Part shown: positions 25,664-57,241 of the stretch, one piece after another | How positions within the stretch are numbered: position 1 is the first letter of the stretch | Layout of the letters: each line of letters starts with the position of its first letter | Source: Bacteroidales bacterium | GTDB taxonomy: Bacteria > Bacteroidota > Bacteroidia > Bacteroidales > ML635J-15 | Assembly: GCA_003249955.1 (NCBI GenBank) | Contig: QKHS01000054.1 | Span: 43,510-107,509, forward strand | Reading direction: 5' to 3' | Length of the DNA: 64,000 nt | Position numbers and translations under genes: made by a program | The notes under the pieces: generated by a model | What the model saw: the letters and a program-made list of their open reading frames with translations, nothing else | Databases searched by the model: none | What the model was told of the DNA's origin: nothing

Positions 25664-25974
25664 TGTTACTCACGGACAAGCTTTTTGGGTTAGCTCTTAA
25701 AAGTTCCGGTGCTTAGTAATTATTAGCCACAAAAGCACAAAAAAAGACAAATCCCTTTAGTGTCTTAGTGGCAACAAAAATAGAATAGCATAATATTGAT
25801 AAAAAAGTAGCCACGAAAGCACGAAAGCACGAAAAAAAGTAAACCCTTTAGTGTTTTAGTGTCTTAGTGCCTTCGTGGCAAAAAAAAAGAGAGCGAAAAC
25901 TCTGTGGCAATGTAAAAAAATTAGGTCGCTTCAAAAACACGAAGAGGAGGGATAACAAATAATAAATTACAGTG

Positions 25975-26043
25975 CCTTCGGCTACGCTCAGTCACCTGAG
26001 TATCCGTTGACTGAGCGTAGCCCGTTCTGAGCGTAGTCGAAGG
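25975..26043 (+). repeat. Alternative-hairpin element, copy 1 (L-M-R)
   Basis: L is ccttcggctacgctcagtca, M is tgactgagcgtagcc and R is ctgagcgtagtcgaagg. L is complementary to both M and R. Confidence 0.85.
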
Positions 26044-26423
26044 CAACATTAGAAATGAAATTAAGTGGCCACAAAAGCACGAAAGCACAAAAAAAAGGAA
26101 TTAGCCTTTAGTGTTTTAGTGTCTTAGTGGCAACAAAAATAGAATAGCATAATATTGATAAAAAAGTAGCCACGAAATCACGAAATCACGAAAAAAAGTA
26201 AACCCTTTAGTGTTTTAGTGTATTAGTGGCAAAAAATAAAACAGTTAATGGGAATAAAGTTTAATGGCCACAAAAGCACGAAAGCACAAAAAAAGGAATT
26301 AGCCTTTAGTGTTTTAGTGCCTTCGTGGCAAAAAAAAGAGAGCGAAAACTCTGTGGCAATGTAAAAAAATTAGGTCGCTTCAAAAACACGAAGAGGAGGG
26401 ATAACAAATAATAAATTACAGTG

Positions 26424-26494
26424 CCTTTGGTTACGCTCAGTCACCTGAGTATCCGTTGACTGAGCGTAGCCCGTTGATTGAGCGTAGTCGAAGG
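26424..26494 (+). repeat. Alternative-hairpin element, copy 2 (L-M-R)
   Basis: Same architecture as copy 1. The L arm reads cctttggttacgctcagtca, with two C>T changes relative to copy 1. Confidence 0.85.
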
Positions 26495-27339
26495 CAACAT
26501 TAGAAATGAAATTAAGTGGCCACAAAAGCACGAAAGCACAAAAAAAAGGAATTAGCCTTTAGTGTTTTAGTGTCTTAGTGGCAACAAAAAGATAATAGCA
26601 TAATATTGATAAAAAAAGTGGCCACGAAATCACGAAATCACGAAAAAAAAGAATCAGCCTTTAGTGTTTTAGTGTCTTAGTGGCAAAAAATAAAACAGTT
26701 AATGGGAATAAAGTTTAATGGTCACAAAAGCACGAAAGCACAAAAAAGGAATCTCACTTTAGTGTTTTAGTGTTTTGGTGGCAAATAAAAGAGAGCGAAA
26801 ACCAGGTAAATAAAAAAAATTAAATAGCCACGAAAGCACGAAAGCACAAAAAAGGAATCTCACTTTAGTGTTTTAGTGTTTTGGTGGCAAATAAAAGAGA
26901 GCGAAAACCAGGTAAATAAAAAAATTAAATAGCCACGAAAGCACGAAGACACAAAAAAAGGGAAAAACCCTTTAGTGTTTTAGTGTGTTAGTGGTAACAT
27001 AAAAATTGGAATAAGAATAAAAATTTATTAGCCATGAAAGCACGAAGACACAAAAAAAGGGAAAACCCTTTAGTGTTTTAGTGTGTTAGTGGCAACATAA
27101 AATTGGAATAAGAATAAAAAATTTATTAGCCACGAAAGCACGAAGACACAAAAAAAGAAAGCCCACTTAGTGCCTTTGCATCTTGGTGGCAAAAAAAGAA
27201 TCTCCTTGCTTAACTAATACAGATTAAGATATAGTTGTTGATAAATAGTTGAATTTCAACCAATTGGCTTGCAATTAATTGCTAAATTTGTACAAACCGT
27301 ATGAAATCTTCTTATATTAACCATATAAATCTATTAATC

Positions 27340-28674
27340 ATGAAAAGAATTATATTATTATTCCCGGCATTGCTTGTTGTATTTTTATCAATTGCTCAGG
27401 ATTATCAGTTGGTTTTTCATGCACAGGGTATTGCCACGCAAATTGATAGTGTTGAAATTGAAAATATTAACCAGAATAAAAGCCTGACAATTTACGGGCA
27501 GGATATTTTACATTTGTCAGGAACGGTTGGAATTAATAATCCGGAAATTTCAGACAAAGAATTATTTATATATCCGAACCCGGCAACAGAATCAGTTTCA
27601 TTGCAGTTCTGTTCAGAAAAGCAGGAAACAGCAAAACTGGAGCTGTTTGATATGTCAGGGAAACTGATTTTCTCTCAAAGCACGGAAATAAATCAGGGAC
27701 AGAATGCTTTCAGGCTTTCCGGCTTTGGCAACGGGAATTATATTGTCAGTTTGTGTTCCGAAACATTTAGATACACAAAGACTTTTGTGTCTGTGTCAAA
27801 CGGGAACAATCAATTAAGGCTTGAGCAAGAGAATTCATCTTCAGATATTGAAAATCGAAAAAAATATGAAGCTGAATCCAAGTCGGTGATTAGTTGGCAA
27901 TATAATGATGGAGATATCCTGATATTTAAAGCATTTGCTGACGGTAATTCCAGAATTTTAGTGTATTACATTGTTGCGGATGCAGACTTGTATTTTGATT
28001 TTGTGTTGTGTCAGGATATAGATGGGTATAAATATCCTGTTACAAATATAGGGTCAAAAACATTTATGGCAGAGAATCTTCATGCTTCAAGGTATAATAA
28101 TAATTCACCTGTTCCGAATGTTACAGACAATACCGAATGGCTAAATCTTGTCAGCGGAGCCAGATGTTATTATAATAATGATAGCGCGGGCTATTCACAA
28201 ACTTACGGAGCTTTATATAATTTTGAAGCAGTGAATTCCGGAGTATTATGTCCCCACGGCTGGCATGTTGCAACTCAGTCTGACTGGGAGCAATTACTTG
28301 TTTATCTGCAAAACAACGGGTATAATTATGACGGGTCATCTGATCCGGATACTGATCCAGGTACTAATGATAAAACGGCAAAGTCGCTTACAAAAGCTAC
28401 GAACTGGATGTCTTCTACAGAAGTTGGAGCTCCCGGTAATAATGATTTCCCGGCATTCCGTAACAGGACAGGTTTTTTCGGGATAGCAGCGGGTATGCGT
28501 GGTGTGTCCGGCAGCACGACAAATATTAGTATTATCGCTGCCTGGTGGTCTTCCACTTCAACAAATACAAATACTGCAGCCCGTTTGGCTATTCAATACG
28601 ATCTGGCCAATAGTGTAATAAGTTATAGTGCAGATAAAAAGTTCGGATTTTCTGTACGCTGTGTTAAGGATTAG
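27340..28674 (+). CDS. FISUMP (Fibrobacter succinogenes major paralogous domain) protein with an internal T9SS-CTD-like domain
   Basis: C-terminal FMAENL...YGALYNFEAV...LCPHGWHVATQSDWEQL...FGFSVRCVKD. Residues ~87-165 (nt 27559-27795) read FIYPNPATESVSLQF...GNYIVSL...TKTFVSV. The probable start is MKRIILLF at 27340. Confidence 0.75.
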   Translation: MKRIILLFPALLVVFLSIAQDYQLVFHAQGIATQIDSVEIENINQNKSLTIYGQDILHLSGTVGINNPEISDKELFIYPNPATESVSLQFCSEKQETAKLELFDMSGKLIFSQSTEINQGQNAFRLSGFGNGNYIVSLCSETFRYTKTFVSVSNGNNQLRLEQENSSSDIENRKKYEAESKSVISWQYNDGDILIFKAFADGNSRILVYYIVADADLYFDFVLCQDIDGYKYPVTNIGSKTFMAENLHASRYNNNSPVPNVTDNTEWLNLVSGARCYYNNDSAGYSQTYGALYNFEAVNSGVLCPHGWHVATQSDWEQLLVYLQNNGYNYDGSSDPDTDPGTNDKTAKSLTKATNWMSSTEVGAPGNNDFPAFRNRTGFFGIAAGMRGVSGSTTNISIIAAWWSSTSTNTNTAARLAIQYDLANSVISYSADKKFGFSVRCVKD

Positions 28675-31755: not shown

Positions 31756-31819
31756 CGAAGGTGACTTCGGCTACGCTCAGTCACCTGATAATAGTTGACA
31801 GAGCATAGCCCAAGGCAAC
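31756..31819 (+). repeat. Alternative-hairpin element, copy 3 (L-M only, R deleted)
   Basis: cgaaggtgacttcggctacgctcagtca-cctgataatagt-tgacagagcatagcc-caaggcaac. Confidence 0.8.
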
Positions 31820-44556: not shown

Positions 44557-47500
44557 ATGAAAACGACATATAAAAAAGAATATTCATTTCCCGGCTTTAA
44601 ACATCTTTCAGTTGCAGGTTTTATTCTGTTTCTGCTTTTGTCATTTAAGGCATATTCCCAGAATTATTTTATGAATTTTTACCCGGGATCTGATACAATA
44701 AATATAGAAACAGTAATAGTCAGAAACCTATCTTCGGGAACAACAGTTTCTGTGACTGCAACAGATGTGCTGAATATAATTTCACCTGCCGATATAAGAT
44801 ATTTAGCCTCAACAGGAAGCAAATTTGAGATTTTCCCGAATCCGGCAAATGAGAGTTTCTTTATTCAGTTTGAATCTCCCGGGTCCGGGCAGTTAAGTGT
44901 CTCTGTTTGTGATGTAAGCGGGAAAATGATTTTAAATAATTCTCTTTATGCAGAAAGAGGGTTTCATAAAATAATGATTGACGGAGCCATGCAAGGTTTG
45001 TATTTTGTGCATGTCAGGGCAGAATCATATATGTATTCCGGTAAAATTGCAGGAACTGCCGGCCACAATTCTGATCTCTCCATGGAACTTGTTCAGACAA
45101 TTCAGGTTGCAGAGAATTACAATATAAGTGAGAAATCAAAATCCGTTTACGAAATTCCTTATAACTTTGGCGATGTGCTTTTATGTGAAGCCACATCCGA
45201 CAGAGGGAACAAAACGGTTAAAACTCTTGTAATATCTGATCAGAATATGTATGCCGACGGAGAAAATCTGAGCATGGCTTTTAATTTTTATCCGTGTAAA
45301 GATTTTGAGCAATACGAATATCCTGTTGTCGAAATAAGCGATATGGTGTGGATGGCACAGAATTTAAATACCGAATATTTTGACAATGAAACCCATATTA
45401 AAATGATTCCCGGCGGGAATACATGGTCGCAGCTTTCAACAGTTGCATATTGCGATTATAATAACAATCCTGCCGAATTTGGCCAATACGGGAAACTTTA
45501 TAACTGGCATGCGGTAAATTACAGCGGCGGACTGTGTCCTTACGGCTGGCATGTTGCAACAGACGAAGAATGGCTTAAGCTGGAATTATTCTTAGGCTTA
45601 AGTGCAGATGTTGCAGATAACACAGGATGGCACGGCAGCTTTGAAGGATGTTATATAAAAGAATCCGGCACCGAACACTGGGCTACGGACCCGGACGAAG
45701 AAACGAATTCAACAGGTTTTACAGCTTTACCGGCAGGAATAAGAACCTTAACAGGAGAATTTGCGCATAGAACAAAGTATGCTGCATGGTGGACAGCCAC
45801 TCAAAGTACAGAACAAAATGCGTGGTGCCGTGCATTAAGAGCAGATTCATGCGATATTTACCGCGAGGACGGTAAAAAAGTGCTGGGACTTTCTGTAAGA
45901 TGTGTTTACAACGAAATAACAGATACCGTGTTACCGGTAGCAGACCTTCCTGTTTTAACAACAGATGCCGTTACAGAAATTCTGATGAATTCGGCTATAA
46001 GCGGAGGAAATATTTCTGATGACGGAGGAGCAGAAATTACTGCCCGCGGGATAGTCTGGAGTACCGATCCAAATCCTGATATTCTGGTAAATGAAGGAAT
46101 TACATACGATGGCTCAGGGGCAGGCTCTTTTGTAAGCATACCAGATGGTTTAACACAAAACACAGTTTATTATGTAAGAGCATATGCAACAAATCGTGCA
46201 GGAACAACCTACGGGCAGAAAGAAATATTTACCACTTTGCCTGCATTTTTCACTGCCGGTCCTGGACTTACAGATATTGACGGAAATACATATTCAACTG
46301 TAATAATAAACGGCATGGAATTTATGGGAGAAAATCTCCGTACTTCGCATTATAACGACGGAGTCCCTGTTTTAAAAATTACAGATGCGACAACATGGTC
46401 AGCAATAAATTCGGGAGCTTATTGCTGGTACGAAGATGATTCTGCATCAAATGAAAATCTGTATGGTAAACTCTATAACTTTAATGCTGTCTCAAATCCG
46501 GCACTTTGCCCTTCCGGCTGGCATGTCCCTTCTGATTACGAGTGGAAGCAGACAGAAATGTTTTTAGGTATGGATACTGTTGCTGCTGATGATTCCGGCT
46601 GGAGAGGAACAAATGAAGGAGGAATGCTGAAAGAGCCTGGTTTTGCACATTGGCTAAGTCCCAATGCTGCCGCTACAAACCAAAGCGGGCTTAATGCTTT
46701 ACCGGCAGGATACAGAGGTGCTGACGGTTATTTTCAGGATTCGGAAAGTGCTGCTTATTTCTGGACAATGACATCGCTGGCAGTAACATCTGCAGCATGG
46801 TTAAGGTCTGTAAGTTCTACCGAAACAGGAATTCTCAGAAGCAACGGAGAACTTACAAAAGGAGCATCTGTGCGTTGTATCAGGAGTATTGTTACACTAC
46901 CTGTAGTTTCAACATCACCGGTAACAAACATATCGGTAAGTTCGGCAGAGACGGGGGGCTATATTTCCGATAATGGCTGGTCGGAGATAACTGCACGCGG
47001 AGTGGTGTGGAATATAACAGGAAATCCGGCTATAGGTGTTGACGATGGTTTTACTGATAACGGAGGCGGTTCCGGCAGCTTTTCGTCTTATATTAGCGGA
47101 TTAAGTCCGGCAACAGTGTATTATGTAAGAGCCTATGCTGTAAACTCTGCAGGAATATCTTACGGCGAAGAAATTGTGTTTAATACATTGATAGCCTTTT
47201 TTGAACAGGGACCGGGTATGACTGATTATGACGGGAAACTTTATAAAACCATAGTAGCCGGAAACAGAGAGTGGATGGCAGAAAACCTCAGCACGTCAAA
47301 ATACAATGGCGGTAATCCCATAACAAAAGCAGAATCTTCGTCAGACTGGGTTACTAATCAGGGCGGTGCATATTGCTGGTATAACAATGATTCTGTTGCA
47401 TTTGACAGCATATATGGCAAATTGTATAACTACAATGCTGCACGAAACGAAACCCTTTGTCCCCAGGGCTGGATGCTTCCTTATGATTGGGAATGGCAGG

Positions 47501-48144
47501 ACTTTGAGAGTTTATTGGGAATTGATGCTGCAGATTTACAGTTAACAGGTTGGCGCGGTACAATTGAAGGCGGAAGGCTTAAAGCTCCCGGAACGACATA
47601 CTGGATTGCTCCCAATACCGGAGCTACTAACGAATATGGACTGGAATACCTGCCCGGAGGACTTAGATTGGCTGACGGAAGTTTTGCTGAAACCGGTATT
47701 TCCTGTAACCTCTGGATGTTTGATACTTACGACGGATCACCATATTTTGGTTATTCACGTCATCTGAGAAATGATCTTGGCAAGATTGGCCGGAATATCT
47801 CGGATACATTACAAGGCTTTAGCGTACGTTGTGTTAAAACGCCTTATCTGCCTACAATAGTTACGTTACCGGTCAGTGATATTTCGGCAGGTTCGGCGAA
47901 ATCAGGCGGCAAAATTCTTATTCAGGGAGCCAGTTCTGTTTATGTAAGCGGACTGGTTTGGTCAGAGTATCCGTATCCTGACATGCAGATAAACAGCGGA
48001 ATTACAAGCGATGGTCAGCTTGAAGGAGAATTTAACAGTATAATGACAGGCCTTGTGCCGGGAACAGTTTATTATGTGCGTGCTTATGCCACAAATGCTG
48101 ACGGGACAGCTTACGGCAATCAGATTGAATTTACAGCGGAATAA
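44557..48144 (+). CDS. Large surface protein: N-terminal T9SS-CTD-like domain followed by three [FISUMP domain + Ig-like domain] modules
   Basis: FEIFPNPANESFFIQF...GLYFVHV at residues ~89-166 (nt 44821-45054). FISUMP modules occur three times (W/FMAENL...YGKLYN...LCPxGWHVP/A...VRCV). The module VYYVRAYA(T/V)N..G..YG also occurs three times. Confidence 0.8.
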   Translation: MKTTYKKEYSFPGFKHLSVAGFILFLLLSFKAYSQNYFMNFYPGSDTINIETVIVRNLSSGTTVSVTATDVLNIISPADIRYLASTGSKFEIFPNPANESFFIQFESPGSGQLSVSVCDVSGKMILNNSLYAERGFHKIMIDGAMQGLYFVHVRAESYMYSGKIAGTAGHNSDLSMELVQTIQVAENYNISEKSKSVYEIPYNFGDVLLCEATSDRGNKTVKTLVISDQNMYADGENLSMAFNFYPCKDFEQYEYPVVEISDMVWMAQNLNTEYFDNETHIKMIPGGNTWSQLSTVAYCDYNNNPAEFGQYGKLYNWHAVNYSGGLCPYGWHVATDEEWLKLELFLGLSADVADNTGWHGSFEGCYIKESGTEHWATDPDEETNSTGFTALPAGIRTLTGEFAHRTKYAAWWTATQSTEQNAWCRALRADSCDIYREDGKKVLGLSVRCVYNEITDTVLPVADLPVLTTDAVTEILMNSAISGGNISDDGGAEITARGIVWSTDPNPDILVNEGITYDGSGAGSFVSIPDGLTQNTVYYVRAYATNRAGTTYGQKEIFTTLPAFFTAGPGLTDIDGNTYSTVIINGMEFMGENLRTSHYNDGVPVLKITDATTWSAINSGAYCWYEDDSASNENLYGKLYNFNAVSNPALCPSGWHVPSDYEWKQTEMFLGMDTVAADDSGWRGTNEGGMLKEPGFAHWLSPNAAATNQSGLNALPAGYRGADGYFQDSESAAYFWTMTSLAVTSAAWLRSVSSTETGILRSNGELTKGASVRCIRSIVTLPVVSTSPVTNISVSSAETGGYISDNGWSEITARGVVWNITGNPAIGVDDGFTDNGGGSGSFSSYISGLSPATVYYVRAYAVNSAGISYGEEIVFNTLIAFFEQGPGMTDYDGKLYKTIVAGNREWMAENLSTSKYNGGNPITKAESSSDWVTNQGGAYCWYNNDSVAFDSIYGKLYNYNAARNETLCPQGWMLPYDWEWQDFESLLGIDAADLQLTGWRGTIEGGRLKAPGTTYWIAPNTGATNEYGLEYLPGGLRLADGSFAETGISCNLWMFDTYDGSPYFGYSRHLRNDLGKIGRNISDTLQGFSVRCVKTPYLPTIVTLPVSDISAGSAKSGGKILIQGASSVYVSGLVWSEYPYPDMQINSGITSDGQLEGEFNSIMTGLVPGTVYYVRAYATNADGTAYGNQIEFTAE

Positions 48145-48963: not shown

Positions 48964-49143
48964 ATGAGTGATTTGGAATCAAAAATCGGTATTAATTTTA
49001 ATGCGGTAAAGTGTCCGGTATGTGGAGAAAAACAACCGGCAATACGAAAACCAAAAGGCCTGTACGAAATTTTATGGGGAGGCTATACCTGTAAAAATTG
49101 CGGATGTAAAATGGATAAATTCGGAAAAGCGAGAGGCAAATAA
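48964..49143 (+). CDS. 59-aa zinc-ribbon protein (intact copy of a triplicated unit)
   Basis: CPVCGEKQ...CKNCGC is a CxxC...CxxC arrangement. The start lies 1 nt after the upstream stop. Confidence 0.5.
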   Translation: MSDLESKIGINFNAVKCPVCGEKQPAIRKPKGLYEILWGGYTCKNCGCKMDKFGKARGK

Positions 49144-49209
49144 GGACGCTGATGCAATAAAATGCAGTAATATACCTGCAAATCTGTTCTAATCCCGGAG
49201 GAATTTAAT

Positions 49210-49362
49210 ATCAATTTTGAGGCTGTAAAGTGTCCGTTTTGTGGCTAAAACTAACCGGCAATACGAAAACCAAAAGGCCCGTACGAAATTTTATTGGGTT
49301 GCTATACCTGTAAAAATTGCGGATGCAAAATGGATAAATTCGGAAAAGCAAGAGGCAAATAA
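49210..49362 (+). pseudogene. Degenerate copy 2 of the zinc-ribbon minigene
   Basis: Near-identical to 48991-49143 but lacks a start codon and carries in-frame stops (gtggctaaaactaacc). Confidence 0.7.
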
Positions 49363-49488
49363 GGCCGCTAATCCGATGAAATACCGTAATATGCCTGCAA
49401 ATCTGTTCTAATCCCAGAGTGATTTAATATCAACTTAAAAGCCCGTAATATACATTCAAATCTGTTCTAATCCCGGAGGGATTTAATA

Positions 49489-49638
49489 TCAATTTTGAGG
49501 CTGTAAAGTGTCCGTTTTGTGGCGAAAACAACCGGCAATACGAAAACCCAAAGGCCTGTACGAAATTTTATGGGGAGGCTATACCTGTAAAAATTGCGGA
49601 TGCAAAACGGATAAATTTGGAAAAGCAAGAGGCAAATA
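49489..49638 (+). pseudogene. Degenerate copy 3 of the zinc-ribbon minigene
   Basis: Near-identical to 48991-49143, with no start codon and a net -1 frameshift (gtggcgaaaacaacc / aaaacccaaagg). Confidence 0.7.
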
Positions 49639-49963
49639 GGGATGTTGATCCAATTAAATGCCGTAATATACCTGTAAAGCTGTCTTAATCCCGGAGTGAT
49701 TTTATATCAACTGAAAAGTCGTAATATACATTCAAATCTGTCCTAATCCCGGAGGGATTTAATATCAATAACCGCGGGTGAAACCCGTGGTTATAACAAC
49801 AACCAACCCCATACTGGCTTTGGCGCTGAATTTGTTCCAGCCTTTGGCTGACAAATTCTGTGACAAAGCTTTTGTAAATCCAGTTATACTGAACCCTAAT
49901 AGAATTTTATTAAAAAAAGAGTTTTGATTAAAATGAATATTTTAAGTATCAAATAAAATCTGT

Positions 49964-51014: not shown

Positions 51015-51021
51015 AGCCGAA

Positions 51022-51139
51022 TTTTCTTCGGGGCAGAGTGTAATTCTCTACCGGCGGTAAAAGTCCGCGACTCCTTTACGAAGGATTGATACGGTGAAAT
51101 TCCGGAACCGACAGTTAAAGTCTGGATGAGAGAAGAAAA
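51022..51139 (+). promoter_or_regulatory. FMN riboswitch (RFN element)
   Basis: ttttcttcggggcagagtgtaattctctaccggcggtaaaagtccgcga...ggtgaaattccggaaccgacagttaaagtctggatgagagaagaaaa matches the RFN consensus blocks and closes P1 (ttttcttc/gagaagaaaa). A downstream hairpin, aatcttt...aaagatt plus tgtttt, could be the expression platform. Confidence 0.9.
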
Positions 51140-51219
51140 GTGAATTTAATCTTTACGATTTCCGAAAGATTATGTTTTGCCCTGAAGGATTATTGTATAA
51201 TTTTAAATGTAAGGGTAAA

Positions 51220-51858
51220 ATGGCAACAATTAATGATTTTGGCGCAGACTACAAAGAGCGTATCGGGAATGCAATCAGTAAACTTCAGAACGGTAAAGGA
51301 ATTTTACTTGTTGATGACGAAAACCGTGAAAATGAGGGAGATATAATTTATCCGGCAAATACAATGACAGTAAAAGATATGGCATTAATGATCCGCGAAT
51401 GCAGCGGAATAGTGTGTTTATGTCTTACTCCGGAAAAAAGCGAAAAGATGGAACTGCATCAGATGGTGAAATCCAATACCAGTAAAAACCAGACAGCCTT
51501 TACAATTTCAATCGAAGCCAAAGACGGGGTTACAACAGGTGTTTCAGCAAAAGACAGAATTCACACCATAAAAACGGCTGTTTCAGAAAATGCGAAACCT
51601 GAAGACCTTGCTCATCCCGGCCATGTATTTCCTTTGGTAGCAAAACAAGGCGGAGTCTTTGAAAGAAGAGGACACACCGAAGGGAGTATCGATCTGGTCA
51701 GATTAGCCGGGTTGGGAGATTCTGCAGTTTTGTGCGAATTAACAAATGAAGACGGGACAATGGCAAGATTACCGGAGATAATAGATTTTGCAAAAAAACA
51801 TGATATGAGCGTTGTGAGTATTGAAGATATTTTTCAATACCGTAAACAGGCATTATAA
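51220..51858 (+). CDS. ribB: 3,4-dihydroxy-2-butanone 4-phosphate synthase
   Basis: [31 protein letters not shown] and [12 protein letters not shown] use the ATG at 51220 (MATINDF); the track's start at 51172 lies in the leader. Confidence 0.9.
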
Positions 51859-51889
51859 AAACAATAAAATAATATTGGTAAAAAAAGCA

Positions 51890-52804
51890 GCCACGAAAGC
51901 ACGAAATTACGAAAAAAGAAAAATCCTTTTAGTGTCTTAGTGTTTTAGTGGCGATAAAGATAAAACTGTTATTGGAAATAAAGTTTAATAGCCACGAAAG
52001 CACGAAATCACAAAAAAAAGTAAACCCTTTAGTGTTTTGGTGTCTTAGTGGCAAAAAAAAGAGAATAGCAAAATATTGACAAAAAAAGTAGCCACAAAAG
52101 CACGAAAGCACAAAAAAAAGAAAAACTCATTTAGTGTCTTAGTGTTTTAGTGGCGATAAAGATAAAACTGTTATTGGAAATAAAGTTTAATAGCCACAAA
52201 AGCACGAAGGCACGAAAAAAAGAAAAAACCTTTTAGTGTCTTAGTGTTTTAGTGGCGATAAAGATAAAACTGTTAATGGAAATAAAGTTTAATAGCCACG
52301 AAAGCACGAAATCACAAAAAAAAAGTAAACTCACTTAGTGTCTTGGTGTTTTAGTGGCAATAAAGAACTTAGTAAAATTAATTAGGCACGAAAGCACAAC
52401 CACGAAGTGCTCAGCATAGCTAAAAGCACAAAAAAAGAATCCCATTTAGTGTTTTAGTGTCTTAGTGGCAGCAAAAAGAGAATATATAATATTGATAAAA
52501 AAAGTAGCCACGAAAGCACGAAGTCACGAAAAAAGAAAAATCCTTATCACGAAAAAAAGTAAACCCTTTAGTGTTTTGGTGTCTTAGTGGCAAAAAAAAG
52601 AGAATAACATAATATTGATAAAAAAAGTAGCCACAAAAGCACGAAAGCACGAAAAAAAGAAAAACTCATTTAGTGTCTTGGTGTTTTAGTGGCAATAAAG
52701 AACTTAGTAAAATTAATTAGCCACGAAAGCACAACCACGAAGTGCTCAGCGTAGCTAAAAGCACAAAAAAAGAATCCCATTTAGTGTTTTAGTGTCTTAG
52801 TGGC
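51890..52804. repeat. Tandem array B: 9 hairpin units of the same family and orientation as array A
   Basis: Units start at 51890, 51991, 52091, 52193, 52295, 52385, 52507, 52630 and 52720. Units 52385 and 52720 carry the insertion aaccacgaagtgctcagc(a/g)tagctaaaagcac. Confidence 0.9.
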
Positions 52805-52858
52805 AAAAAAGATGGTAATGATAAAGAATGTGATATATATTATCTGAGTTTGCCGGTT

Positions 52859-55800
52859 TTATTTTATTAAAGTAAAGTATCCCGCCTTTGTGTATGTATT
52901 GCCGTACAAATCGGTGAATGTAACTACCCATGAATATTCGCCCGGATTGCATTCCATCTCGTTGTACCGTCCGTTCCAGCCTTCTTCGTAGTCTTCACTG
53001 TCAAATACTCTTTCTCCCCATCTGCTGTATATCTGCAGGTTATAAGTTTCCGGGTCAAAATTCGCGATAATAACCTTAAATTCTTCGTTAAGGTCATCAT
53101 AATTGGGTGTAAATGCAGTAGGGGCGTATATGGTCAGTTCGCTGTTTACTTTTATATCCACATAAGCGGTATCGTAGCATCCGTAAAGTGAAGTGGTGTT
53201 TAAAATTACCCGGTAAACTCCCGGCATTGTGAATGTGTGCGCGGGATTTTCTTCTGTTCCCATACTGCCGTCACCAAAGTCCCAGTGATACCAGAAACCG
53301 CCTTCGCTGTAGTTGGTAAAATAAACAATAGGGAATGATGAACTTACACTTGTTGAACTGGAGTTAAAGTTTGCATCCGGAACAGGGAATGCGGTTATCC
53401 CTATTGTTGTATCATTTTTGCAGCCGTTTACAGATGTTACTTCCAGGTAAACATGGTAGCTCCTGGGATTGTAGAATGTGTGTAACGGGTTTTTGTCAAA
53501 TGACAGATTTTCAAAATCACCGTCGTCAAAATTCCATACATAGCGTTGACCCAAGTCAGGGCTTATTTCGTTAAACTGTACAGTTAAAGGCACACAGCCG
53601 CTGTATTTGTCGGCAACAACGTCAACCGGAGGAAGCGGGTAAGCTTCTACAGGAACTGCAACCATAACACTGTCAAAGTGACATGCATCCCAGACAGAGA
53701 AATAAAATACAGTATCCGTGTAAATATCAAGCTCAACCGGAATTGTCATTACCGAGTCGTTTACAATAACAGTATTTCCGGTTATTCCTCCTCCTGAAAA
53801 GTTAACATCAAATGCAAGTCTGGTATCAGGACAAACTGAGTATGTGTCTGCCGATACTTCGAGCGATAACGGATCGTTAACATAAACGGTTACATCTATA
53901 TCTTCGCTTATACAATTTGCCAGGTCAACAATATGTGCAGAATAAACCGTAGTTTCTTCCGGGCTGACCAAAGTTGTCATTCCGTTATCATCATTGCTCC
54001 AGAGTATTGTATATGGCGGAACACTTCCTGAAATTATACCCACACCGATTTCGGCAGTCATGCCGTAACAAATTACAGGATTGTCCATAGGCTGAATATA
54101 GAACGGATCAGGTTGTGTCACCTCATACTCCATTTCGTAATGACATCCGCTTTGGTCTGTGGCTGTTACAGAATATGAACCGGCTGTTACACCTATAAGA
54201 TTTTGCTGCCAGCTTCCTGTATTCCAGACAAACTCATATGGCGGTCGTCCTCCTGCTATATTAACATAAATATTTCCGTTGTCCCCGCCGTTACATGTTA
54301 CCTGGGTACCGCTTATCATTCCGCTTAAAGGAGCCGTCGGTTGGAGAATCTGAATGGTGTCAGCCGTGATACAATTATTTGAATCGGTTATGGTAACCAT
54401 ATAAATTCCAGGTGTAAGATTGTAAATGTCTTCGCTTATTTCACCGTTACTCCAGTTAAAATAATAAGGAATGGTTCCTCCGTTCACATTAAGGTCAGCA
54501 ACCCCGTTAGTTTCTCCGAAACATCTGATATCTGTTCCTGTAATTTCTCCGTGTAACGGGAACTGTGGCTGGGTTATCTGCGCATAAGCAAATGATGAGC
54601 ATCCGTTGGCATCTGTTACCGTAACGATATAAGTTCCGTAGAAAATATCTGTAAGGCTCTGGTCTGAATCACCGTTGTTCCATTCGTAGTCGAACGGGAA
54701 AGTACCACCTGTAATGTTAAGAATTACCTGTCCGGTATTTTGCCCGTAACAGGCAACATTTACAGGATTTACAACTGTTATAAGTTCATCAGGTTCTGTA
54801 ATAACATAAGTGTCGGAGATTGTACAGTTGTTAAAATCAGTAACGGTTATTATATACGAACCAGCAGGAATGTTGTAAAGATCAGGAACCATCATACTGT
54901 TTGACCAGAGGTATTGATAAGGAGTTGTTCCTCCCGAAACAGATGTTGTGATTTGTCCGCTGTTTTCTCCGTGACATGATACGTTTTGAAGAGTTGAGCT
55001 TACGGAAAATACAGGGGGTTCGTTTATTGTAAATGAGTCGGAGCCGAAACATCCGTGGTCGTCAGTGATTGTAAATCCGTAAAGGCCGGGAGCAAGGCCG
55101 GTAGGTGAAAATCCGCTTATGCCTGAAGGGTCCCAGGCTATTGTGTAAGGACTGGTTCCTCCGTTGGCAGAAACTGTTGCCTGTCCGTCATCAAACCCAA
55201 AACAGGAAATATCCTGAACATTTGAAATGTGTGTATTGAGGGATGGCGGCACATCTACAGAAGCTGTCGTACTGGCAGTACAACCCAGCGATTCTGTAAC
55301 CGTAACCGAGTAATTACCCGGACCAAGGTCTGATATTGTTTGCGTTGTCTCAACAGGTGTTGTACTCCATGCAAAAACATATGGGGTTGTTCCACCTACA
55401 GGATTGGCCGTTACAGAACCATCAGCGGTTCCGTTACAACTAATATCCTGAGTTGTTGCATTGACTGAAATATTTACAAAGTCAATATGGCAACTCTCAC
55501 TTACGGAGCATCCGATGAGGTCGGTTATTGTTACCGAATAATCTCCTGTTGAAGAGAAAGTATAGCTTGAACTGGTGCTGTTATCCTGCCAGTGATAAGT
55601 TACATCGGGAATGTTTAAGTTTACTGTATAAGGTGCTCCGTTACAAACAACAGAATCCGGCAAATCTGTAATAGGAGGTAAAGAACTGTTTACCGGAACT
55701 ACCAGTTGCAGGGACTCTTCCACACAGCTACCGTCTCTCATAAAACTCATTGTTACAGTGTATTCACCTGAATTCGGGAAGGTGTGGTTAAGTGCAGGAT

Positions 55801-57241
55801 TTCCGGCATAAGTAGGAGATCCGTCGCCAAAATCCCAGACAATATTGGAAATGTTTGTGGAGTTTGTCTGAAAATCAACTGTGGTTTGTGAGCATATTAA
55901 AGTGTCGTTAAATTCGTCAAATGCAGTGGGATCTCCGTCAATAACAATGTCAAAACTAACATTCAGAGGTTGAATGTTCGCTCCGGCAAGATAACCGTAT
56001 GATTCAACATTACCGAAACCGTAAACAGTTGCAAGAACACCTTCGTCTGAAGTTAATACATGAGTTCCCTGAGTAAGAGTCTTTCTGACATAAGAATAAG
56101 CTGTATTGCCCGGCACAGTAGCCCATCCGGTAAGTGCTGCTCCATCGAGTTGAGCTGCAGATGTAAACGGGGTTTCTGTTACAATGTTGGTATAAAACTG
56201 ATTAATTGCTGTTGTGTTAAACGCCTGAAATACAATGTAATCCAGAGTTTGTTCCACCGGCGACAGCATAATCATAAACGGGTCGGATGTAACTCCGTCA
56301 CAACTTGTTCCTTCGCTGTATTGAGCAACGGAAATAGGATTATTACCTTCAATAAACGAAGCAGGGGTGAGGGTTGTTTCATAAAACTGACCGGCATTAA
56401 GGTTTATAGCAGCTCCGCCGTTAATATTTACAGTTGTGCCGTCTTCGCTTGCTATTATCCTGTAAGTGTCGCCGACTCTGGTCATTAAAGGAACCGTAAT
56501 ATACTGTTTTCCCCATGCCTTTATAGGAATCATCTGCTCGTACAGGTGGTCGCAATATGTACAGCTAAGCGGAACATTTGCACATTTGTTTCCTGCAAAA
56601 ACCGCGAAATTGTTACAGTTTCCGCTGTCGGTGGCTGTTACTGAAGATCCTGTTAAATCTCCTGAGCTTTGTACCATATAAACTTCCCCCTGATTTAGCG
56701 TTATCGTGAACGGGACATTGGCAGCAACTCCTCCTGTAACGGCTGCTTTGGGAACTATTTCTATAGACGTATTGTTTGAAATCCCGACTACAACAAACAT
56801 AGAAGGCAGACTGCTGAAAGGAGAGTAACAGTTAACCAGATATGAGTCTCCCAGGGCTCCTGTTTGCATAACCAGAGTAGCATCTGATGAGGCATCTCTC
56901 TGGTTTGCTGCATAAACGGCAACCGGAGTTGATGATACAACTTTTACAGCTTTGTTCAATACGGTATTGCCTATATCAATTGCGGCATTTTGTGCAGCAG
57001 GAACTTCAACAAATACAGAGCCGTTTGCCGGAATTGAAAAATTCTGGGACCATCCTGTGCCTGGCATACTGGCAGTGCCTGTTGCCCCGACATCGGAAGT
57101 TATGTAAAGCTGTGTGTTTTCAGGATCGTCAAAGTTTTGCATGTAAGATAACCAGAATTCCGTACCGGTGGTGCTTATCTGGGAATAAAGCACAGTATTG
57201 CACAAAAATGCAAAGAGAACGTAGATGTATATTTTCTTCAT
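52859..57241 (-). CDS. 1460-aa cell-surface protein: IgGFc-binding-N-like domain, PKD domains, about 9 SprB-type repeats, and a T9SS type-B (gliding-motility CHU_C) sorting domain
   Basis: N-terminal TGTEFWLSYMQNF. Repeated C.G..(D/N)G.......GGT.PY...W modules. FGDGS PKD signatures. The C-terminus reads IYAPTAFTPNYDDLNEEFKV...YSRWGERVF...GWNGRYN... Confidence 0.85.
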   Translation of the reverse strand: MKKIYIYVLFAFLCNTVLYSQISTTGTEFWLSYMQNFDDPENTQLYITSDVGATGTASMPGTGWSQNFSIPANGSVFVEVPAAQNAAIDIGNTVLNKAVKVVSSTPVAVYAANQRDASSDATLVMQTGALGDSYLVNCYSPFSSLPSMFVVVGISNNTSIEIVPKAAVTGGVAANVPFTITLNQGEVYMVQSSGDLTGSSVTATDSGNCNNFAVFAGNKCANVPLSCTYCDHLYEQMIPIKAWGKQYITVPLMTRVGDTYRIIASEDGTTVNINGGAAINLNAGQFYETTLTPASFIEGNNPISVAQYSEGTSCDGVTSDPFMIMLSPVEQTLDYIVFQAFNTTAINQFYTNIVTETPFTSAAQLDGAALTGWATVPGNTAYSYVRKTLTQGTHVLTSDEGVLATVYGFGNVESYGYLAGANIQPLNVSFDIVIDGDPTAFDEFNDTLICSQTTVDFQTNSTNISNIVWDFGDGSPTYAGNPALNHTFPNSGEYTVTMSFMRDGSCVEESLQLVVPVNSSLPPITDLPDSVVCNGAPYTVNLNIPDVTYHWQDNSTSSSYTFSSTGDYSVTITDLIGCSVSESCHIDFVNISVNATTQDISCNGTADGSVTANPVGGTTPYVFAWSTTPVETTQTISDLGPGNYSVTVTESLGCTASTTASVDVPPSLNTHISNVQDISCFGFDDGQATVSANGGTSPYTIAWDPSGISGFSPTGLAPGLYGFTITDDHGCFGSDSFTINEPPVFSVSSTLQNVSCHGENSGQITTSVSGGTTPYQYLWSNSMMVPDLYNIPAGSYIITVTDFNNCTISDTYVITEPDELITVVNPVNVACYGQNTGQVILNITGGTFPFDYEWNNGDSDQSLTDIFYGTYIVTVTDANGCSSFAYAQITQPQFPLHGEITGTDIRCFGETNGVADLNVNGGTIPYYFNWSNGEISEDIYNLTPGIYMVTITDSNNCITADTIQILQPTAPLSGMISGTQVTCNGGDNGNIYVNIAGGRPPYEFVWNTGSWQQNLIGVTAGSYSVTATDQSGCHYEMEYEVTQPDPFYIQPMDNPVICYGMTAEIGVGIISGSVPPYTILWSNDDNGMTTLVSPEETTVYSAHIVDLANCISEDIDVTVYVNDPLSLEVSADTYSVCPDTRLAFDVNFSGGGITGNTVIVNDSVMTIPVELDIYTDTVFYFSVWDACHFDSVMVAVPVEAYPLPPVDVVADKYSGCVPLTVQFNEISPDLGQRYVWNFDDGDFENLSFDKNPLHTFYNPRSYHVYLEVTSVNGCKNDTTIGITAFPVPDANFNSSSTSVSSSFPIVYFTNYSEGGFWYHWDFGDGSMGTEENPAHTFTMPGVYRVILNTTSLYGCYDTAYVDIKVNSELTIYAPTAFTPNYDDLNEEFKVIIANFDPETYNLQIYSRWGERVFDSEDYEEGWNGRYNEMECNPGEYSWVVTFTDLYGNTYTKAGYFTLIK

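Follow-up and report, generated by a model that had tools for sequence, protein, structure and literature searches.

A tandem hairpin array between ribB and an adhesin-like gene of a Bacteroidales bacterium: a possible cluster of a REP-like extragenic palindrome

In the 64,000-nt stretch of Bacteroidales DNA analysed here (the window, positions 1–64000), ribB and a gene for a large adhesin-like protein converge on an intergenic region occupied by nine hairpin units. The locus raises the question of what these units are and how they came to be multiplied at this place. We tentatively consider the array (array B) to be a cluster produced by tandem amplification of a REP-like extragenic palindrome, whose type is cross-phylum and undescribed as far as checked; our confidence in this reading is a little below even. 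The main features of the locus, and of a second array (array A) in the same window, were as follows.

51020..51141, + strand: FMN riboswitch (117 bits, full length), directly 5′ of ribB
51172..51858, + strand: ribB, DHBP synthase (Pfam DHBP_synthase, E 3e-79), upstream neighbour of array B
51890..52804, + strand: array B, nine hairpin units and recurring spacers in the order U1-s1-U2-s2-U3-s1-U4-s1-U5-s3-U6-s2-U7-s2-U8-s3-U9
52859..57241, − strand: T9SS adhesin-like gene, 1460 aa (IgGFc_binding, SprB repeats, PKD, CHU_C), convergent with ribB
25726..27190, + strand: array A, approximately 13 units of the family and polarity of array B, containing a 449-bp higher-order repeat
25975–26045 and 26425–26495 (nested in array A) and 31757–31818 (alone): second, GC-richer hairpin family

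Anatomy and growth of the array

All nine units of array B were arranged head-to-tail on the + strand. They began 31 nt after the end of ribB, and 54 nt separated the end of the array from the adhesin ORF (stop included, from 52859). The sequence-only reading of this stretch had already described nine + strand units, of the family and orientation of array A, filling the convergent gap; its distances of 32 and 55 nt were one base off at most. Each unit consisted of GCCAC, three left octads (CACGAAAG type), an A-rich loop, three right octads (TTTAGTGT type) and GTGGC. The octad consensus was CACNAARN in the left arm and NYTTNGTG in the right arm, with GCCAC/GTGGC closing the ends, and the right arms of array B terminated in ..TAGTGGC. 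Units in the window measured 62–87 nt, and all 22 of them (arrays A and B) were intergenic. The units and spacers of array B were:

51890..51952, + strand: unit 1, MFE −19.3 kcal/mol, z −4.5
51991..52052, + strand: unit 2, MFE −18.6 kcal/mol, z −3.3
52091..52154, + strand: unit 3, MFE −19.6 kcal/mol, z −4.6
52193..52256, + strand: unit 4, MFE −26.3 kcal/mol, z −6.7
52295..52358, + strand: unit 5, MFE −20.3 kcal/mol, z −4.8
52385..52469, + strand: unit 6, GGCAC start, 32-nt insert in the left arm at 52398–52429
52507..52591, + strand: unit 7, hybrid of the left part of unit 1 and the right part of unit 2, with two loop segments
52630..52693, + strand: unit 8, MFE −22.8 kcal/mol, z −5.6
52720..52804, + strand: unit 9, 32-nt insert at 52733–52764, the unit closest to the adhesin stop
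51953..51990, 52155–52192 and 52257–52294, + strand: spacer type 1 (GATAAAGATAAAACTGTTATTGGAAATAAAGTTTAATA), with a related module in array A
52053..52090, 52470–52506 and 52592–52629, with the pre-array flank 51869–51889, + strand: spacer type 2 (..AATATTGACAAAAAAAGTA)
52359..52384 and 52694–52719, + strand: spacer type 3 (AATAAAGAACTTAGTAAAATTAATTA)

The motif GCCACRAAAGCAC was searched in the window with at most one mismatch and compared with 100 shuffles. It matched 23 times (0.16 expected; none of the 100 shuffles attained 23), exclusively within arrays A and B, with 21 matches in left arms (+) and two in fourth right-arm octads (−). The canonical units of array B folded on the + strand with −18.6 to −26.3 kcal/mol (z −3.3 to −6.7). 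Stems on the − strand were slightly weaker (−15 to −21 kcal/mol), since the G-U and G-A pairs of the + strand there become C-A and C-U.

The better fold of the + strand in the window, achieved via these G-U and G-A pairs, would suit units that are small-RNA genes, or an array processed as repeat RNA, in analogy to NsiR1-type tandem sRNAs or type III antitoxins. The Bacteroidetes −7 box has the consensus TAnnTTTG, and spacer type 2 contains TAATATTG, one mismatch away from it, approximately 12 nt 5′ of the hairpin. We nevertheless regard this explanation as very unlikely: the + strand hairpins are not followed by a U-tract, covariation and an Rfam match were both absent, neither a toxin-like gene nor any other partner lies next to the array, and elsewhere the family occurs as single copies indifferent to strand.

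Array A is located between a radical SAM gene and a Fib_succ_major gene, both on the + strand. Its 449-bp higher-order repeat bears the second, unrelated hairpin element (GGCTACGCTCAGTCACC...TGACTGAGCGTAGCC, also given as GGCTACGCTCAGTCACC...TTGACTGAGCGTAGCC), whose lone copy at 31757–31818 lies just after an ORF stop. As the sequence-only reading had noted, spacer modules are common to both arrays, and units 6 and 9 of array B share an insertion of about 32 nt, the two inserts being identical but for one A/G difference. The insert contains TCAGCGTAGC, a motif related to the second hairpin family. The GC skew was positive in all 8-kb bins of the window and 45 of the 53 ORFs of at least 120 aa were on the + strand, which places both arrays, in one common polarity, on the probable leading strand. 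Two further observations were made in the window. A tandem duplication at 48990–49769 (periods 219 and 277 nt, 88–89% identical) covers small ORFs with a paired-cysteine motif. Two proteins (44557–48144 and 27301–28674) combine Fib_succ_major domains with a Por_Secre_tail match near residues 90–163, a position that is unusual because it is N-proximal and not C-terminal.

Array B has been enlarged via segmental duplication. The segment 52546–52701 is a copy of 52007–52162 (unit 2 onwards, 96% identity), 52628–52810 is a copy of 52293–52475 (94%), and 52486–52545 is a copy of the sequence after the ribB stop together with the left half of unit 1 (93%). The first and last of these copies abut within unit 7, so that the duplicated loop ascribed to this unit by the sequence-only reading is better described as a segmental-duplication junction, although two loop segments are indeed present. 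Tandem repeat analysis with TRF gave periods of 102 (4.7 copies), 202 and 123 nt, and with its head-to-tail copies and higher-order periods the array qualifies as a minisatellite or tandem repeat. The spacers recur as three modules in the order s1, s2, s1, s1, s3, s2, s2, s3, and none is unique. The regular repeat-plus-spacer layout with a period near 100 nt recalls a CRISPR-like array, or a different kind of immune locus that stores spacers, but this reading is effectively refuted by the recurring modules, by repeats of 62–87 nt and by scanned neighbours in which cas-type domains were absent.

Relatives of the host give an indication of age. In a strain with a 99%-identical RibB, the first unit was found at the same place on a 994-bp contig that stops 11 nt into the unit, while a relative with 81% RibB identity lacked the hairpin downstream of ribB; array B is thus young and local. 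The other closest RibB contig (1658 bp) stops approximately 115 nt past ribB, and the best RibB relatives that carry names (Dysgonomonas, Paludibacter, Marinifilaceae, Maribellus) were about 80% identical. Arrays of this kind break short-read assemblies, as the lengths of the two closest RibB contigs illustrate. The tandem cluster that we favour would have arisen in a minisatellite-like manner, with one extragenic palindrome and its flanks repeatedly duplicated locally, presumably by unequal recombination or slippage among units.

Distribution and genomic context of the hairpin family

The first scan for related elements used a loose 16-mer of the left arm only, with one genome per species, and listed 120 loci, approximately 80% of which were chance hits. 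Among these, about 20 loci in metagenome-assembled genomes (MAGs) from at least five phyla contained the complete hairpin including the right arm. Since only the left arm had been searched, this is unbiased proof that the arms go together. The taxon labels, which derive from the MAGs, were Acidobacteriota, Vicinamibacterales, Planctomycetaceae, Bacteroidales, Lewinellaceae, Saprospiraceae, Prolixibacteraceae, WOR-3, Desantisbacteria and Kiritimatiellales. A gapped-pattern search recovered at least 120 metagenome contigs and 34 viral loci, in DNA of 29–70% GC. The genome-wide family proposed in the sequence-only reading is therefore broader than claimed, a cross-phylum hairpin family present in Acidobacteriota, Planctomycetota, Bacteroidota, WOR-3, Desantisbacteria and phages.

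On metagenome contigs a further copy occurred about every 48 kb, and on viral contigs about every 10 kb. Outside the window the element was mostly a dispersed single copy, and dense arrays were observed in the window only; the sole other cluster seen (L232, 10446–10623) comprised three tandem periodic hairpins with short loops, approximately 0.9 kb from a tRNA gene. According to crude ORF calls, 70 copies lay between tandem genes, 16 between divergent and 11 between convergent genes, a distribution more like indiscriminate occupation of intergenic DNA than like the siting of terminators. No neighbouring gene was enriched, with 111 and 82 distinct Pfam families over 81 and 81 neighbours. A regulon or cis-regulator was rejected on this basis, as no Pfam family recurred in the 162 neighbouring genes; these included housekeeping genes such as those for AspRS, NadA, LpxK and TruB. 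A single phage lineage or a phage-encoded partner was likewise rejected, since 143 viral ORFs matched 136 PHROG families, with several portal and head types.

Copies on one contig can have loop sequences in common (e.g., L260), and a composite sub-family of approximately 150 nt, in which the inner flanks are fixed and the outer ones unrelated, was found twice in one contig (L164). Shared loops within a contig and the recurrent composite form point to spread inside genomes. The composite element (L127, L128, L153, L184, L233 and twice in L164) consists of a CCGGATAAACCGG mini-hairpin, a hairpin with a conserved AAACTGTTTG loop, and GAAAATGTTTTGCCAYAAAA; its loop is similar to spacer type 1 in the two arrays of the window. 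In high-GC metagenome hairpins (e.g., L146, L173, L178), TGTACA was often present in the loops, possibly marking a lineage-specific sub-family. A target-site duplication was not found when flanking k-mers of 4–9 nt were compared with re-paired controls. Matches exceeded the controls few-fold at most (k = 5, offset 1: 6 versus 1.15), and four of these six came from the one composite sub-family with shared flanks.

The palindrome that we propose as the founder of array B would accordingly be described as an intergenic imperfect inverted repeat of 60–90 nt with REP-like behaviour, scattered elsewhere as singletons, with about one every 10–50 kb. It may multiply in genomes as a selfish or domesticated palindrome, probably in the form of a single-stranded hairpin. 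Once transcribed, the hairpins would have a generic role only: on the + strand they could act as a barrier to 3′–5′ decay of the ribB mRNA, and on the − strand the four units in which a hairpin is followed by U7 are possible terminators for the adhesin mRNA. The hairpins might plausibly affect where the ribB or adhesin transcripts end at their 3′ side, and arrays may influence the expression of adjacent surface-protein genes.

Such a role could also be the reason for the array, which would then be a transcription insulator, a stack of terminators for the adhesin mRNA (−) combined with decay barriers for the ribB mRNA (+). Read on the − strand, units 1, 3, 7 and 8 (four of nine) are followed by TGC or TAC and then T7 (3-nt gap), with spacer type 2 providing TAC and T7 immediately after the hairpin, and units 6 and 9 are followed by TAATTAATTTT; stems of −15 to −21 kcal/mol precede these tracts, and the convergent gap is filled exactly. 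However, a consensus terminator scan returned 0 sites, and the A-runs that follow the hairpins on the + strand imply that there is no ribB terminator. Array A, with the same polarity, sits between two + strand genes and has no minus-strand gene to serve, and termination does not need nine copies. Across the family, U-tracts were not commoner on the sense side (at least five T in the first 10 nt in 19 of 70 copies, versus 27 of 70 on the antisense side). There was no sense-strand preference in folding energy either (26 sense versus 37 antisense, p 0.09), nor in loop composition or flanks. We therefore consider the insulator improbable, and the idea of termination or stabilisation put forward in the sequence-only reading is weakly supported.

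Arm rule, pairing and constraint

Among 161 distinct hairpins, the only constant parts were the CAC and AAR triplets (GTG and YTT in the opposite arm), and every fourth base was free. In two of the three octads the search pattern itself fixed the triplets, so the independent evidence comes from the third octad and from the first, unbiased scan. In the third octad, which the pattern did not require, NAAG or GAAA continued in 137 of the 161 copies. The element is a chain of 3-bp blocks with free positions between them. The flanks extend the palindrome to T-N-[GCCAC...GTGGC]-N-A and are AT-rich; throughout the family one flank is A-rich and the opposite one T-rich.

The free positions did not behave as paired bases. 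Across the 161 hairpins, the base after CAC formed Watson–Crick pairs at chance level (0.34 and 0.28, versus 0.27 and 0.26 expected), and Watson–Crick pairing of the base after AAR was depleted (0.19–0.23 versus 0.38–0.39 expected). The latter base was a purine in the left arm and a pyrimidine in the right arm, giving G-T or A-C in 51–55%. The AAG:CTT versus AAA:TTT correlation was equally strong for non-partners and partners, and so reflects composition, not pairing. In the window units, the three free positions were unpaired in 49 of 50 cells, with one G-U, and covariation was absent from 18 window units (score 0.042, versus 0.044 when shuffled). A fold is nonetheless predicted, the better strand reaching a median of about −32 kcal/mol. 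A link between mismatch polarity and GC skew was weak (OR 3.2, p 0.06) and was set aside, as composition can explain it.

In a single orthologous phage pair, the hairpin was without substitution, at the free positions as well, and had one 1-nt loop indel, while the flanks were 92.6% identical; hypermutable free positions were rejected on this basis. From this one pair, the hairpin element may be under constraint. Triplets kept over 29–70% GC, together with the unsubstituted hairpin of the phage pair, exceed what would be expected of a neutral selfish repeat, and this suggests that the sequence of the hairpin is read by something.

The main rival to the REP-like palindrome draws on these data; we rate it as unlikely. 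The octads would be iteron-like sites for a conserved sequence-specific protein that recognises the CAC and AAR triplets at 8-nt intervals, whether in double-stranded DNA, in a folded single strand or in RNA. Each arm would offer three converging sites, as in the 7–8-bp repeats coated by ribbon-helix-helix repressors, and arrays would be high-capacity platforms or sponges (approximately 54 octads in array B). Such a reader would better explain why triplets alone are conserved from 29 to 70% GC, with the fourth positions at chance pairing and the other free position depleted in Watson–Crick pairs. It is also consistent with the conservation of the element in the orthologous phage pair, with an AAR:YTT correlation that is not partner-specific, with the lack of covariation in the 18 window units and with a strand-symmetric element free of sense bias. 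On the other side, a candidate protein was not found, no gene co-occurs nearby, the search pattern itself imposed constancy in two of three octads, and approximately 100 sites per genome between unrelated genes match no known regulator. The more specific proposal, in which an undescribed, widely conserved protein recognises CAC/AAR triplets every 8 nt, the intervening bases are deliberately unpaired and the arrays are amplified platforms, is rather doubtful.

Ribbon-helix-helix operators include the omega heptads (WATCACW) and the 8-bp metboxes of MetJ. They are built of short non-palindromic subsites every 7–8 bp, direct and converging, with few bases read in each. Those operators serve few promoters on one replicon, whereas the hairpins occur genome-wide between unrelated genes. 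If an octad reader were true, the hairpins would be a nucleic-acid element shared across phyla and read in ‘octads’, sighted here for the first time, with sites marking the intergenic DNA of Bacteroidota, Acidobacteriota, Planctomycetota and phages. The odd rule itself (three bases kept, one free, 8-nt period) points to a reader molecule that could be fished with a probe.

Comparison with known repeat families

No match for the hairpins was found in Rfam, which returned only the FMN riboswitch, one tRNA and, below threshold, hairpins of eukaryotic miRNAs. BLAST of concatenated hairpins against cultured phages and plasmids gave no match, to which the low-complexity filter may contribute, and nothing matching the family turned up in the literature, searched by sequence and keyword, or in the repeat catalogues checked. 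The sequence-only reading had named a match to a known family as an outcome that would speak against it, and no such match emerged. If truly undescribed, the family adds a widespread class of extragenic palindromes in phyla where REP-type elements are barely charted. Resemblances to the DnaA box, CIRCE, parS, sigma-54 promoters, MuA sites, RSS/CACTA ends and sso CS-6 were weighed and dropped.

Several classes could be compared on their defining features. As in bidirectional intrinsic terminators, the element is a palindrome with one A-rich and one T-rich side, with T7 on the − strand after four units of array B. Terminators, however, are not known to share sequence between phyla, whereas the hairpins do, and the hairpins have weak U-tracts that are not on the sense side, loops of 14–38 nt and a mismatch at every fourth pair. 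The arms could serve as terminal inverted repeats (TIR), but the target-site duplication that, together with them, defines a MITE was not found. Neither a match to a curated covariance model nor compensatory changes placed the family among structured RNAs. The R″ and R′ boxes of integron attC sites (RYYYAAC ... GTTRRRY) differ from the hairpin ends, (T)N-GCCAC ... GTGGC-N(A), and in place of the cassette ORFs that separate attC sites the neighbours include housekeeping genes. The neighbours in the window (ribB and the T9SS adhesin, and for array A radical SAM and Fib_succ_major) do not fit a type III toxin–antitoxin (ToxI-like) system, in which tandem repeats directly precede a gene for the endoribonuclease toxin. 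The minisatellite/MITE BrickBuilt of Porphyromonas gingivalis (PMC4596501) is likewise an intergenic modular tandem repeat of Bacteroidales with a possible influence on transcription, but it has a 23-nt repeat without spacers and leader and tail inverted ends, is confined to one species and is unrelated in sequence.

The ‘atypical secondary structures’ that flank Y1 transposases of subclass 2.6 (Bacteroidetes) and class 3 (Planctomycetes, Acidobacteria) have a taxonomic range strikingly like that of the hairpin family (PMC6006769). There they are characterised by weaker secondary structure, by the lack of GT[AG]G and by about 600 copies in Solibacter. The sequences in its supplementary table, however, are short (24–34 nt) GC-rich hairpins; CACGAA, CACAAAG and TTCGTG do not occur in the text searched, and the CnGA foot given there for class 3 was not seen in our hairpins (PMC6006769). 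A Y1/HUH transposase was absent from the window neighbours and from hairpin-flanked ORFs, and a crude HUH...Y motif scan of approximately 2 Mb of loci was also blank. A RAYT flanked by units was likewise not present in these loci, although one such gene per genome could lie elsewhere.

The closest comparison is with REP elements and BIMEs, known as GTAG- and CGTC-tagged families (PMC3733652). REP are 20–40 nt long, carry a conserved unpaired tetranucleotide foot and have a cognate RAYT, and they are usually species-specific and often alternate in orientation. The hairpins, in contrast, are 62–87 nt long with 8-nt periodic arms, are found in multiple phyla and, in the window, are neither of REP size nor alternating, all units being direct. 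A GTAG/GTGG or CGTC foot was not general in the family (T at flank position −2 in 61% of copies, −1 mixed), and a GTAGCCAC foot was present only in window units preceded by spacer type 2. The REP reading is weakened because foot, REP size and alternation are missing, and because neither a target-site duplication nor, in the loci scanned, a Y1/HUH transposase was found. It is supported because the units are non-random and all direct, and because copies are intergenic, have unrelated neighbours and show signs of spread within genomes. Like REP and BIMEs, the hairpins are multi-copy, extragenic imperfect palindromes between unrelated genes, which occur both as singletons and as tandem clusters that include flanking DNA.
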